Positions 1,791 to 53,475 of a DNA stretch of 64,000 nt are shown here, in pieces. The notes beneath the pieces were generated by a model. It was given only the letters and a program-made list of their open reading frames with translations, was not told the DNA's origin and made no database searches. How positions within the stretch are numbered: position 1 is the stretch's first letter; every line of letters begins with the position of its first letter. A program made the translations under genes and the position numbers. Origin of the DNA: Podarcis pityusensis (taxonomy: Eukaryota); the NCBI GenBank assembly GCA_964106645.2, contig OZ067046.1. One strand, given 5' to 3'.

Positions 1791-3661
1791 GGCTTTTGGC
1801 TGCCTTCCACCATCACCCAAAGCATCTATTTTGGTATAATAATAAATTTTAATTTATACCCCGCCCTTCCCAGTTTAAAAATCGGGCTCAGGGAGGCTAA
1901 CAGCAAATATAAAACATGGATTAGAATGCAACTTTAAAACAGCATAAAATACAACAAAAAATGCAGCATCAATATCAACAGAATTCAAAAATTCCGGGGT
2001 CAATTTGGGGAGGGAAAACAACAACACAACGTATGCACGTTGATCACAATGAAACATGCCTTCCATGCTTCACATTTCCAACTCAGTGTGAGGAAAAAGA
2101 GTCTGGGGGCCTAATTTATTAACTGCAGCCCAATTATTGAAGATGGCTTAATTTGCCTTTAATGTTCAGTGACTCCATGACAGAGGGTTTTGGTGCTCAA
2201 AAAACTTTGCTGCAAATGGTGAACATGTTGCAGGATCAGTTCAGAACCATGCTATATCATTACTTTATGCAACATTAAATTAACAGCCTGGTGTTCCTTA
2301 ATTGCATCAGCATGTTATTGGCTCTCTTGGAGCACTGGAGATGAGGAAGCTCTTCAGGGAATCGCAGCTGATTAATGAGAGTGCGTCAAAACTTGTCAGA
2401 AGCCAGCAACCCCAGTATGTTTCCCCTATGGGAGAAGATGATAATGAATGAGATATGAAGATAGGCATGGGGGAAGGGGCTATAATGAAAAACTGCTCAC
2501 ACCCTTAGCTAATGCATGCTTATTGGGAAGTAATTTCCTTTGAGTTCAATGGGATTTGCTCCCATCCAAGTGTGTATATAGTGCCCTGGCTCAACCAGTT
2601 GAGGGACCGTTCTGGTAACAGTTACTAGGAAAAGATGGTTCAGATGCTGGAAGTGTGAGGTTTGCAGCCAAATCACAAGTGCATGTTTTGCTAGGCAAGC
2701 ACAGAGAGATCTTTTGTTGTTGTTGAAATTTAATCTTTATTGATTTTAAATATTAAGTCCCTTCACCACAAAAAGAACAACAAAAACAGATCCCACCAAA
2801 TAGAAAGAAAATGTTACATATAAAATAAAATTCTTCCATATGTTGAGACTTCCGTCGTCCTCAGTATGGGTCCTTCGTTTCCTTGTTGACTGCATATTTG
2901 TATATTCTTTAACTTAACATAAATTATCCATTGTACACAGAGAGTTCTTAAACTTCCTAGAGAGGATCCTTTGTGTGGCCTACTTCTCCTGCCTCCTCTG
3001 GGTGAGAATTCTGTAACAGACAAGATAATCCTTTATCCTTCCTTCTGTCTCTCTTTCCACCATGCTTCCAAGCTAAGCAGACATGTTTTGCTGATGCTCC
3101 TGGCTTCAGCCAGTGTTTCTGAGACTACCAACATTTATTTTACTGCAACTCAGAATTATTTTTCTGCATACTACTTTTTATATATGCTGCCTGAATTGAA
3201 ATGTAAGTAAACCTTTTTTGTTTATCATGCCAAAATGGTGATGAAGAGGGGGAGGTCAGCAGACCACAAATAAAAGGGCATAAAAGGGTGTGATTGCCTA
3301 ATTCCAAGTTTTAGTAAGGTGCAAAGCTACAAGTGTTTTACTCTGCTAACAGACTTCAAAACCCACTTACTTTTTGTATGTCTCCCACACACCTAAGAAA
3401 GGAGGTTTACATTTTAATCTACAGATATAATCCATTTCCTACAGGAAGTAGATGTGGCTGAAGCTTGAAAGCAGCAAGGAGTTACAAAAACTTACACTCC
3501 ATCTTTGTACATTGCAAGGCGCGGTTACACTGGAAAATCTTTATGCCATCTGGCAGAATTTTATCTTGTACACAAATAAACTTCACTTAACAATAACAAC
3601 TCATACTGCCTTCCCGTGAGATCTGGAACTCTAGAGTTACCTTTCATTTTTGAATGCAATA

Positions 3662-3903
3662 CAGTGGTACCTCAGGTTACATACGCTTCAGGTTACATAC
3701 GCTTTAGGTTACAGACTCCGCTAACCCAGAAATAGTACCTCGGGTTAAGAACTTTGCTTCAGGATAAGAACAGAAATCGTGCTCTGGTGGTGTGGCGGCA
3801 GCTGGAGGCCCCATTAGCTAAAGTGGTGCTTCAGGTTAAGAACAGTTTCAGTTTAAGAATGGACTTCCGGAACGAATTAAGAACTTAACCCGAGGTACCA
3901 CTG
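3662..3903. mobile_element. Tc1/mariner (Tigger-like) MITE, ~240 bp
   Basis: TIR CAGTGGTACCTC...GAGGTACCACTG with TA target duplication; same family at 31938 and 37791. Confidence 0.9.
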
Positions 3904-4402
3904 TATGTGATTTGTACCATTCTTTGTCCCTATGCTTCTTAACTGGATTTCTCTTTCACTCTCTTTTTCTTTGGGTAATATGGCTTGCTTTGCATTAAAA
4001 TTGATTAAAAATGTTGTTTTTTTTTAAAAAAGGACACTGAGCATGGCGTTGAAGGTGAATAGGGTCAGGTAATCACTGAAAAAGTTAGCAAGATCAGCAT
4101 CAGATTATGAAACAGAATCATGGATCTGAAGGAGGAAAAACCAAAGAAAAGACAGTAATCTATTCTGGCACTTTGGGGACAGGGAAGTGTGAATGGAGAA
4201 AGTTGGAGAAACAGAAACTGGGCTATTGGCAAAGCAATTAATAAATATTAATAATATGTCTGTGGAAAAGACATCCCCAGGAGCTTAAGAATTGGTCTAA
4301 GTGGAAAGCAGGACTGGTGGACACACACACACAGTTGGATTGATGTACCCTTGAGGAGTAAGACAAAAAATGGGATAAATTTGATTTTAAAATGGAAATA
4401 TA

Positions 4403-5304
4403 CCGTATTTTTCGCTCCATAGGACGCACTTTTTCCCCTCCAAAAATGAAGGGGAAATGTGTGTGCGTCCTATGGAGCGAATGCAGGCTTTCGCTGAAGC
4501 CTGGAGAGCGAGAGGCATCGGTGCGCACCGACCCCTCTCGCTCTCCAGGCTTCAGGAAGCTATCCGCAAGCCTTGCAAGCCCGGTGGGAGTTCCCGCGGG
4601 CTCACAAGGCTTGCAGGCAGCAGCCTGCAGCCCTGGCGAGTGTCCGCAAGCCTTGCGCGCCCGGCAGGAGGTCCCGCCCAGCGCGCAAGGCTTGGGGCTG
4701 CAGCTTGTCGCCCGAAGCACGGGGAGCCCTCCGGAGGGCTCCCCGTGCTTCGGGCGAGTGTCTGCAAGCCTTGCGCGCCCGGCAGGAGGTCCCGCCCAGC
4801 GTGCAAGGCTTGGGGCTGCAGCTTGTCGCCCGAAGCACGGGGAGCCCTCCGGAGGGCTCCCCGTGCTTCGGGCGAGTGTCTGCAAGCCTTGCGCGCCCGG
4901 CAGGAGGTCCCGCGCAGCGCGCAAGGCTTGGGGCTGCAGCTTGTCGCCCGAAGTACGGGGAGCCCTCCGGAGGGCTCCCCGTGCTTCGGGCGAGTGTCTG
5001 CAAGCCTTGCGCGCCCGGCAGGAGGTCCTGCCCAGCGCGCAAGGCTTGGGGCTGCAGCTTGTCGCCCGAAGCACGGGGAGCCCTCCGGAGGGCTCCCCGT
5101 GCTTCGGGCGAGTGTCTGCAAGCCTCGCGCGCCCGGTGGGAGGTCCCGCCGAGCGCGCGAGGCTTGGGGCGGTAGCCTGCAGCCCGAAGCACGCGAGGCT
5201 TGGGGCAGCAGCGGGGGGGGGGATAATTTTTTTTATTCATTTCCCCCCCCAAAAAACGAGGTGCGTCCTATGGGCCGGTGCGTCCTATAGAACGAAAAAT
5301 ACGG
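4403..5304. mobile_element. TcMar-Tc2/pogo-like MITE with an internal tandem array
   Basis: TIRs CCGTATTTTTCGCTCCATAGGACGCAC / GTGCGTCCTATAGAACGAAAAATACGG, with TA on both sides. Confidence 0.88.
4635..5190. repeat. 118-bp GC-rich tandem repeat, ~4.6 copies, internally palindromic
   Basis: gcaagcct(t/c)gcgcgc recurs at 4646, 4764, 4882, 5000 and 5118 (period exactly 118); units nearly identical. Confidence 0.95.
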
Positions 5305-6119
5305 TAGTTAGATAATATTCAGCTCTGTATCCCAGCATATGAGCATGATTCCTTTATCTACTTTTTGAATTAGCTGGTGCTTCAGCTATCACATTCCCAG
5401 TTTAAAACTGGTTTGCTTGGGAATTGAAGAATGTGATTAAGCAACTCCTGTTTTAATAGACGTTTTGCAGATCTGGCTTGAGGTTCCTCGTGCTGCTTAG
5501 TGGTCAGTTTGTCACTTAAAAAAAAATAGGAGGTAGGATCATCTGGTTGGCTGGATTCAGATGAACAGTTTTCTTCTACGAAGATGCACTGACTTTTGAA
5601 GTCTTATGGTGTTTGGAATTAAGGAACGCAATGCATTTCAAGCAACCCCCCCAAGAATCCCGGGAACTGTAATTTACCCATCACAGGGTTACAATACCCA
5701 ACATTCTTAGCAATCTACAGTTCCCATGATATTTGGGGGGAAATGTGCTTTAAATATGTAGTGTGTGCGCTAAACAACTCATCTTATAAGGTTGTGTCTA
5801 AGACTGAGCAAAAATCCCCTTCCCCAAATCCACAGCTCAGTCCAGCTATTCAGGGGTGTGAAGGATTATTGAAAGGATCTGTCAAATGGAGAATTACCGT
5901 TGTGTTGGCAGTGATCCTCTCCACTTCATCCCCCCCCCCTTTCACTCTCTTTTAGTGCCTCAACCAATCAGCTTCAACACTGGGCATGCATGTATGTTTT
6001 GGGAACAGCTTAAGAGTACAGGTATTTATGGGCTGTGGCCAGCAGTCCCAATATATTTGTCTTTCCAAATCCATGCAGCCAAAATACCTTAACCCACCTC
6101 TCCCCACCCATAGTCTATA

Positions 6120-18923: not shown

Positions 18924-19006
18924 ATGGTTTCTGCCAAGGAGCCAGCGATCGCGATGCCTTGGGGTCTGTCTGTCACCTTCCTACACTTCCTGTGCCTGAC
19001 GACCTG
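18924..19006 (+). CDS. GABRA4: GABA-A receptor alpha-4, coding exon 1 (signal peptide)
   Basis: aagATGG start; MVSAKEPAIAMPWGLSVTFLHFLCLTT resembles the alpha-4 signal peptide; donor TG|gtgagt (phase 2). Confidence 0.93.
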
Positions 19007-31937: not shown

Positions 31938-32172
31938 CAGTGGTACCGCAGGTTACATATGCTTGAGGTTACATACGCTTCAGACTCCGCTAACCCAGAA
32001 ATAGTGCTTCAGGTTAAGAACTTTGCTTCAGGATGAGAACAGAAATCGTGCTCCGGCGGCACAGCGGCAGCAGGAGGCCCCATTAACTAATGTGGTGCTT
32101 CAGGTTAAGAACAGTTTCAGGTTAAGTACGGACCTCCGGAGCGAATTAAGTACTTAACCTGAGGTACCACTG
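31938..32172. mobile_element. Tc1/mariner (Tigger-like) MITE
   Basis: CAGTGGTACC TIRs, TA TSD; same family as 3662. Confidence 0.9.
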
Positions 32173-51022: not shown

Positions 51023-51818
51023 GTAAGAATCTAGTTGGTGATAATCAACTTAAGGGGTGGAGTTAGCGGTCTAATTTTGTTTTAGCCAAAGATGTTTTGG
51101 AAATCTCAGTGTAGCCTAAGAGGCATAATAAGCATATGACAAACCCTAGACCATTTATCTCCAGGCTTACACTAAAGCAGATAGCCTGTTGCTGCATGCT
51201 GTGCTGTCTCTCTTCGGAAAGCAAAGTGAAAATGGTTGAAAATGCAAGATTGTCGCTACCGACATATTTTCATAGCCGTGCTGCTGGCAAGTGTTGATCT
51301 TTGTGATTTATCATGCTACAAATTGCATGCAGATTGGCCAACTAAATCCCTATTAGAATTGCTGCTGGAGCAAACACATTAAACATAACAGCTATTACTG
51401 CTGGGTTGTTTTTTAAATTTTTTAATATATTTTTGTGTAGTGATAAAAAATAGCAACAGGCAGCAGTGTGAGAAGTGGCAGTGTTTAAGATCTGTGGGTG
51501 TTTTTGTTTTTCATTTTTTTAAAAATGATGGCTGTTGGTTGGTTATATGATTGTATTGCTAAACGCTCTATTACTGGTGCAGTTTGAAACATGCTCTAGC
51601 AGAGATCACGACAGAATTAAGCAACAGAGGGAGCAGATGTAGGCGACAGATTTCCGAGTGTCGTTATTGATAGCAAGATGAAGCAATATTTTCCTAATGT
51701 ATTGGATATTATCTGTAAGTGAGATATCACTGATCTATAATGGAATATCAGGCCAAGATTCTTAGATTGCTCCTTAAGAAGGTGTCTCCGTGATCTTGGT
51801 AAAAAATCTCAGTATGTA

Positions 51819-52076
51819 CCGTATTTTTCGCTCTATAAGACGCACCAGACCACAAGACGCACCTAGTTTTTGGAGGAGGAAAACAAGAAAAAAAATATTC
51901 TGAATCTCAGAAGTCAGAACAGCAAGAGGGATCACTGCACAGTGAAAGCAGCAATCCTCTTGCTGTTCTGGCATCTGGGATAGCTGTGCAGCCTGCATTC
52001 GCTCCATAAGACGCACACACATTTCCCCTTACTTTTTAGGAGGGAAAAAGTGAATCTTATAGAGAAAAAAATACAG
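51819..52076. mobile_element. Tc2-like MITE related to 4403-5304 (opposite orientation, no array)
   Basis: TIR CCGTATTTTTCGCTCTATAAGACGCAC; its right ~90 bp is the reverse complement of 4403-4490; TA flanks. Confidence 0.88.
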
Positions 52077-53475
52077 TAATTATAAAACAACTAGATCCTG
52101 GAGTGTAATGGACTTCCCAGCAAGATGCCTTTACATTTCCGTCGACTTCTTTTAAAATTGAGTTTGAATAGCAGCCCAAATCTGGAATGATGGTTTCATA
52201 CCAGAATTTCCACCAGAAGGCTCAGGTTGTTTATAGCTTTCCTTTAAGTGGGTGGGTGGTATGTGGGAGGAGAAGATGGGCGGAAGTGAGGCAATTAATT
52301 GAGCATTTTGATCATGCTTTGGGTTTTGGCAGGCAATTTATTTTCACGGTGTGGAATGAAGAACATTGGTCTGGTTCTATCCTGCACACAGTTGCACTTT
52401 GGAACAGACCTGACCCATCATGGGCTTAATAAACCTCCTGTTCTTAATGCATGCCCTAGACTGGAGAAACAGGGATGGAAAAACAGTGACAGGCAGGTGG
52501 CCAGCGACAACACATCTGGTCAACTATGTTTGGCTCTGTAGACTAGGACATGAGCATGGGAGAAGGCATGCAAGCCTGTAATATGTTTGATAATCCTTAG
52601 CTCTTTACTGTCTTGGCTTTGAAACTCATTTGCTCTTGTGCAGCATTTTTTGGTAGGTCCTAAGCCTGACTCCAAGTAGGATGGAGAGCCAGCCCATTTC
52701 TTTTCAGGTGGACCTATAACCACCTCACTTCATCCCCCCCCTCCTGCTTTGAGCATTGGACTGGTCCCAAGGTCCCAAGCATACTTTCCATACAGCCACT
52801 ATTATGGAAAATTTCCCATTGCAGGCCCCACTGAAATGAATGGGTACTCAACTACACAAGCCCAGGGAGGTGCTTTTGTGCTGCCCCCATTCATTTCAAT
52901 GGGGTTTAAATGGGAGAACTTCACCTGGTGAATAACAACTATGCTTGGTATTCATTGGCTTAAAAAAATCAATGAAAGGAAGACATTTTCTTGGTGCATC
53001 TGTTGAAAATATAATCCTGAAGTAGTAATTATATGTTTTCCAGATGCTGCAGTATCAGAACAGACAGCTAATATTTTACTTATACTTATTTTTCCCACCC
53101 TCCAGCGTATACCTACATATCTTTATGGTACGTGAAAGTATGAGGGATGTCAAACAGTCCCTATTATTTCATGTTTTACATCCCACCTCCTGGGTAGTAT
53201 TTTAAGATCTACTTGTTTTCCCTGGAATCAGTATGGCTTTTGTTTATTATTATATATCCTGTTCTTCCTATGTGGAGCTTGGAGTGACTCATGTGAGCTC
53301 CCACTGCTGTCTTAGCTAGGCTGAAACTTCGTTCAATTTAGTGAATCTTCATGTTTTCAGAGTTAAATGAACTGAATGCAATTTGAGTAGCTGGAGAATA
53401 TGTTAAAATAAATAAATAAATCTGGGTGTACTGAAAGTTTTTTTTTTAAATGACTTTTGGCTTCCCCCCCTTTAA

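Follow-up and report, generated by a model that had tools for sequence, protein, structure and literature searches.

The origin and change of tandem arrays inside MITEs, and the feeding of satellite DNA by such arrays, have so far been argued from static catalogues in clam, frog and fly. In the clam Donax trunculus, the accessible text on DTC84 describes a pearl-like, tandem-repeat-containing MITE that has an AA duplication, a microsatellite and as many as five 156-bp repeats, in which the repeat variants are ordered, each repeat holds a palindrome, and units are deleted from a preformed array (PMC3879986). The Tc1/mariner MITE miDNA4 of Xenopus tropicalis and the Xmix/Xstir elements are vertebrate TIR MITEs that contain a monomer or an internal array that varies, with microhomology-driven change, and the available portions of two reviews present miDNA4 as a proposed case of capture of an existing repeat and as a source of TIR-free satellite (PMC12628747, PMC9659126). 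In lizards, the Anolis elements TcMar-N4 and TcMar-N6 are non-autonomous, have CCGTA/CYGTA ends and a TA duplication, and were called Tc2-related; in the accessible part of that report no partner was found, and arrays or palindromes are not mentioned (PMC3014272). Passer transposons, among them Anca-PasserC of Anolis and Vibe-PasserC of Vipera, are described in the available text as having TIRs of 27-29 bp that start from CCGTA, together with a TA duplication (PMC7386202, PMC9976928); fish members function in human cells, and the words 'MITE', 'lizard' and 'tandem' are absent from the accessible text of the latter source (PMC9976928). The available parts of PMC7325037 and PMC10702118 were also used for comparison. 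In the literature covered, which consisted mostly of non-subscription papers, no description of the lizard family reported here was found.

The window, which is the whole 64,000-nucleotide stretch of Podarcis pityusensis DNA that was analysed, holds at 4403-5304 an element of this known type, a tandem-repeat-containing MITE like DTC84 and miDNA4. The original prediction, made from the sequence of the window, had described a 118-bp period, a zero-spacer 50-bp palindrome in each unit, a second hairpin with a 14-bp stem, and intact TIRs with a TA duplication, and each of these parts was recovered: the period is repeated 4.7 times at 4635-5193 with 95% matches, three of the palindromes are perfect and the third in order has one mismatched pair, the 14-bp stem is broken once (C>T at 4802, in unit 2), and the TIRs agree at 25 of 27 positions with TA on both sides. 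Two more hairpins were found beyond those listed in the prediction, at 4494-4555 (zero-spacer) and 4566-4613. The features of the element and of the neighboring gene are as follows.

4401-4402, no strand: left TA target-site duplication; a single TA at the empty site
4403-4429, plus strand: left TIR, 27 bp, Passer type; 25/27 identical to the Anolis PasserC TIR (PMC7386202, supplementary file 3)
4463-4481, minus strand: subterminal inverted copy of the inner TIR, found in transposase-coding copies too
4494-4555, no strand: single zero-spacer hairpin with 31-bp arms, 94%; common to sister families and the transposase-coding copy L206
4566-4613, no strand: diverged, older homologue of the second hairpin
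4635-5193, plus strand: 118-bp tandem array (4.7 periods) in which five hairpins with 14-bp stems alternate with four 50-bp palindromes
4708-4757, no strand: palindrome 1, perfect
4826-4875, no strand: palindrome 2, perfect
4944-4993, no strand: palindrome 3, with one CpG-type C>T at 4954
5062-5111, no strand: palindrome 4, perfect
5194-5277, plus strand: 3' tail of G-run, T-run, C-run and subterminal repeat; related to the L206 3' end (86%, last 101 bp)
5278-5304, minus strand: right TIR, 25/27 against the left TIR
5305-5306, no strand: right TA target-site duplication
18924, 19229, 48835, 49062 and 61860 (within 18924-62000), plus strand: GABRA4 exons

The array length at this locus is taken as it stands in the assembly. 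Outside the array, the longest zero-spacer arms in the 64-kb window are 10 bp, and the predicted fold of the element reaches -422.5 kcal/mol; shuffled versions average -219 (z -42), and none of the 20 is as low. The inverted copy of the inner TIR at 4463-4481 is likely a second, putative transposase site. Compared with DTC84, the lizard element has a TA duplication, Passer TIRs, up to 14 units per copy and a unit that consists almost wholly of two hairpins, and both a partner transposase and ancestral forms are present in the same genome. In contrast to the capture proposed for miDNA4, it has a homologue of its unit inside the parent-like transposon. It differs from Anolis TcMar-N4 and TcMar-N6 in the body of the TIR.

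Recent mobility had been proposed for this element, and the presence/absence check bears this out. In run X1, an 837-base contig covers 3910-4402 and a contig of equal length, depth and strand covers 5305-5626; the two overlap by two letters, which is the pattern of an empty site with one TA. Contigs of runs X15, X6 and X16 cross the junction with letters that do not match the element, so that empty alleles were seen in public contigs of four runs. Because the empty site has a single TA, the insertion is recent; the element is absent at the orthologous spot in other sampled animals, and the insertion is unfixed. In run X15, a left-flank contig also ends exactly at 4402, and this pattern would fit a heterozygote. 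The neuronal gene predicted about 13 kb downstream proved to be GABRA4, with its ATG at 18924 and with GABA-A alpha-4 as the best PDB match of exon 2 (E 1.7e-14). On the other strand, an exon of a beta-type subunit gene, which we take to be GABRB1, precedes the window by about 13.6 kb; its distance to the element is about 18 kb. The two genes are divergent on either side of the element, which is therefore intergenic.

The assignment to Tc2-like elements was supported in a more specific form, since the MITE is a non-autonomous derivative of Passer (pogo). Its TIR is short (27 bp, thus under 30 bp), carries the CCGTA motif and matches those of PasserC elements from both Anolis and Vipera (PMC7386202, supplementary file 3), with two mismatches between 4403-4429 and the young transposase-coding copies. 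A conserved transposase motif was found at 14 genome loci; among the 13 that were extended, both TIRs are present at nine, an ORF of 424-425 aa lies between the TIRs at eight, and all three aspartate motifs are retained at six. The partner transposase is within the expected 400-500 aa and has the same ends as the MITE: like PasserC, it is a single 425-aa ORF with DDE_1, HTH_Tnp_Tc5 and DD35D (spacing 35), together with a weak BrkDBD match that, at 22.2 bits, falls just below the 23.4 cut-off. Unlike PasserC, the MITE has no ORF and the transposase-coding copies hold variable arrays in their 5' region; five young transposase-bearing copies have an array of 112-114 bp of their own (2.1-8.1 copies), and two of them also a 223-226-bp array. 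Intact Passer DD35D genes are present at L211, L213, L214, L216, L207 and L206 (on C4, C5, C7, C19, C2 and C1, respectively), some of them at least 99% identical (L211 and L213 share 99.5% over 1,945 bp), with GC-rich variable arrays between the left TIR and the ORF. These genes are candidates for an active reptile Passer.

The youngest transposase copies match the MITE at the ends only (about 80-87% over 80 bp). The L206 copy, which has an intact 425-aa ORF, agrees with it at 92% in the first 173 bp and at 86% in the last 101 bp, and contains a 2.7-copy double-hairpin repeat of its own, and these end matches together with the repeat point to an origin of the MITE by internal deletion. The clan TIR has at least 4,519 exact ends in the genome. 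A hairpin arm of 20 or more was present in 28 of the first 30 clan matches by position (201-1,265 bp) and in none of the composition-matched controls; the commonest form, seen in 11 of these 30 members, is 263 bp with one hairpin. Sister MITE families have separate 89-bp and 119/129-bp arrays, the latter motif matching 211 times. Hairpin chains and variable arrays thus recur throughout the clan, transposase-coding copies included. Sister arrays were located at L153 (C1 19925), L157 and L226-L233, and the 119/129-bp family reaches at least eight exact units at one locus. Copy L172 has a near-perfect hairpin with 49-bp arms made from its own subterminal sequence, which suggests fold-back synthesis.

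The subfamily has at least 324 copies in the genome (by a pattern at a junction that occurs once per element), and the palindrome core matches about 850 times per strand. To assess unit number, 108 copies were dissected (18 reached via the unit, 28 via the left arm and 62 by position from match lists; the set omits L049, a distinct copy with four units and both TIRs). Both TIRs are present in all 108 and TA..TA in 106, and each copy has from 0 to 14 palindromes, always between the TIRs, so that unit number is not fixed, as had been predicted. The copies are MITE-like in their TIRs, high copy number, dispersal and lack of an ORF, but owing to the array their length ranges from 331 to 2,086 bp and is neither short nor uniform, as in other repeat-containing MITEs; the variable internal array between conserved ends and the ordered repeat variants place them with the tandem-repeat-containing MITEs. 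An identical 232-bp left arm is shared by 39 of 104 copies, many of them chosen for left-arm identity, and these have from 1 to 13 units; unit number therefore changes faster than point mutation accumulates. In L102, L112 and L094, the 118-bp-array MITE inserted independently into the same TA within other abundant repeats, that is, at target hot spots. L014 and L049 were considered as one duplicated insertion with a changed unit number, but their flanks diverge about 20 bp upstream, and they arose by separate insertion events into the same TA of another repeat. The last unit of L087 is interrupted by an unrelated insertion of about 450 bp.

By four left-arm sites, 75 of the 104 ungapped copies are classed as young and 29 as older. 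A census of C1 and C2 (n=64; five of 69 copies, four gapped ones and L049, were left out) showed that young copies have 6 units at the median and a private divergence of 0.4%, and older copies 2-3 units at the median and a private divergence of 1.1%. Age and unit number are negatively correlated (Spearman -0.50, n=64); however, the census copies are related and represent in effect one lineage change, so that p-values overstate the support. The palindrome is imperfect in 24 of the 29 older copies and in none of the 75 young copies; among older copies with one unit, it is imperfect in 8 of 9. The transposase-coding copy L206 has the old allele at both left-arm sites open to comparison, and the old state is therefore ancestral, which fixes the direction of change. 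Because units are fewer and the palindrome is imperfect in the older copies, growth and perfection of the array belong to the master lineage and not to the insertion at 4403-5304. The intermediate imperfect palindromes could be products of crossovers between units instead of stepwise correction.

Variant maps showed that the unit variants follow an order common to the copies, and this order is inherited from a master of roughly nine units. Within the sub-lineage of the window copy (38 copies), 24 have fewer than nine units, nine have nine and five have more, with peaks at nine and seven; the C1 and C2 census of the same sub-lineage (n=13) gave 10, two and one, respectively. The window copy has a hybrid first unit and then three units that are alike; none of its four point changes extends beyond a single unit. 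Given the shared order, the four palindromes against about nine in the master, and the confinement of changes to single units, the window copy is most likely a contraction from the master.

Of 17 units of odd length, six show one recurring deletion of 57-58 bp, bounded by short direct repeats where the two hairpins end, although some of the six may share descent. This recurrent deletion backs the earlier suggestion of hairpin-driven slippage, and slippage at hairpin ends is the likely driver of unit-number change; its setting may be gap repair after excision or ordinary replication. Among 55 element-private variants, 11 are present in more than one unit, which indicates that expansion, after or around insertion, also occurs in some arrays. 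Frequent correction of one arm by the other in inserted copies was considered and rejected, because the 511 present-day palindromes show no excess of compensated changes (2 against 3.9 expected); one-sided changes number 332, and 266 of the 511 cores are still perfect. When the window unit was compared with the homologous L206 unit over 33 stem pairs, five compensated double changes, two two-sided changes to G-T and five one-sided changes were counted; on this comparison, the stems co-vary over longer time.

Altogether, the reading we prefer, with a probability of about 0.78, is that the element is a recent, unfixed insertion whose array is cargo of the family, likely derived from a master of about nine units and cut to four palindromes by hairpin-promoted slippage. 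The MITE would have arisen when an L206-like transposase-coding element, already equipped with a homologous double-hairpin repeat, underwent internal deletion; in the master lineage the palindrome was presumably perfected, probably with one arm serving as template for the other, and the unit then amplified. The candidate partner transposase would cut and paste the element at TA, and when the hairpin-rich strand is copied, in donor gap repair or ordinary replication, the polymerase may slip between units or between the short repeats at hairpin ends, with loss of units more often than gain. Inserted copies would be methylated and then decay as neutral passengers. The original prediction had seen here a satellite being born, an array expanding at this locus and elsewhere that is leaving, or will soon leave, the confines of its TIRs by the route proposed for miDNA4 in the available part of PMC12628747. 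A rise from 1-2 to about nine units, and up to 14, did take place in the lineage, the 11 duplicated private variants and a partial head-to-tail duplication in L070 (an internal copy of its own tail) speak for expansion, and a satellite in the making is nonetheless improbable: each of the 23 unit clusters found in the 100 listed matches on C1:1-103 Mb is bounded by TIRs, so that TIR-free 118-mer arrays such as those attributed to miDNA4 were not found there, and long arrays without element ends were not seen within the assembly, where the maximum is 14 units. The second hairpin has 1,225 exact matches genome-wide against about 1,470 predicted from C1 density, a total that leaves no room for a large assembled block. 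The claim was also not borne out at the locus itself, where the array follows the family's variant order, is shorter than the nine-unit master and has no private change duplicated between units. That the assembly has inflated the array is hardly credible; assemblers have trouble with palindromes and GC-rich repeats, and the array is known from the assembly, but its units carry locus-specific changes and yet follow an order shared over many chromosomes.

Two functional readings were weighed against that of neutral cargo. The hairpins may be of adaptive value to the element, with an array of perfect palindromes raising the copying rate through stalled repair synthesis or by aiding gap repair or transposase synapsis, so that perfected, longer masters outcompeted the ancestral form. 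The young perfected lineage outnumbers the old forms by 41 to 23 in the census at a divergence of 0.4% against 1.1%, 28 of 30 clan members picked by position have the long hairpin arm that composition-matched controls lack, and stems diverge yet stay paired; we nevertheless consider selection rather unlikely, as the rise is a single event in one lineage, the 263-bp one-hairpin form is the commonest clan member (11 of 30), template switching yields paired stems in the absence of selection, and older families also lose detectable copies. Far less probable is a co-opted insert that regulates GABRA4 or the divergent beta-subunit gene, as a CpG island or a source of hairpin RNA. The element does sit between the divergent genes, at distances of about 13 kb to the promoter of GABRA4 and about 18 kb to the beta-type exon, and in base composition the predicted CpG-island-like block was confirmed (GC 0.68; CpG o/e 0.86 for the element against 0.33 for the window). 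The unmethylated state of an island was not: in the left arms (n=104), the transition rate per site is 0.018 at CpG and 0.002 at other C/G sites, and this 9.0-fold excess indicates, from the substitution pattern, probable germline methylation across the family. Because of this excess, the CpG richness reflects youth and not an island. The element is moreover missing from the empty alleles of four runs, its position is intergenic, no RNA run was among those that contain the right flank, and none of 65 Rfam matches to it reached the gathering score, all being generic hairpin matches.

A broader reading, about which we are doubtful though less so than about selection on the hairpins taken by itself, is that a vertebrate Passer clan, still live, constructs its interior through fold-back copying: hairpin modules would be added, perfected arm from arm and tandemly amplified in transposition-linked repair, with perfected arrays favored because they raise the copying rate, and the sister families with 89-, 112-114-, 118- and 119/129-bp units and the transposase-coding copies would be parallel outcomes. 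If it were true, ancestors, intermediates and enzyme would have been caught together in one genome. The locus at 4403-5304 is an ordinary young insertion, and the family is well suited to testing how arrays grow in MITEs. One genome holds a series of parent-like transposon, imperfect one-unit ancestors, perfected multi-unit masters, contracted daughters and empty alleles, along with near-identical intact transposase genes for a candidate live enzyme, and the completeness of this series makes slippage and gap-repair models directly testable. It also shows that hundreds of perfect 50-bp palindromes, apparently methylated, persist in a vertebrate genome.

Other elements were encountered in the window and in the search for the partner. 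The top DDE_1 matches (30 of 150 listed loci and five more) were rejected as partner, being Tigger-type or domesticated and lacking the clan TIR at their ends, and a search with the BrkDBD family gave two weak matches, neither with the TIR. L128-L150 and further matches form a large Tigger-type family with many open ORFs of 566-567 aa, probably also recent. At 51817-52079, the window holds a second member of the same TIR clan, in the common 263-bp one-hairpin form. A short element with a 16-bp tandem repeat, presumably Tigger-like, adjoins the MITE at 3660-3905, and its repeat recurs at 31950, 37804 and 62824.
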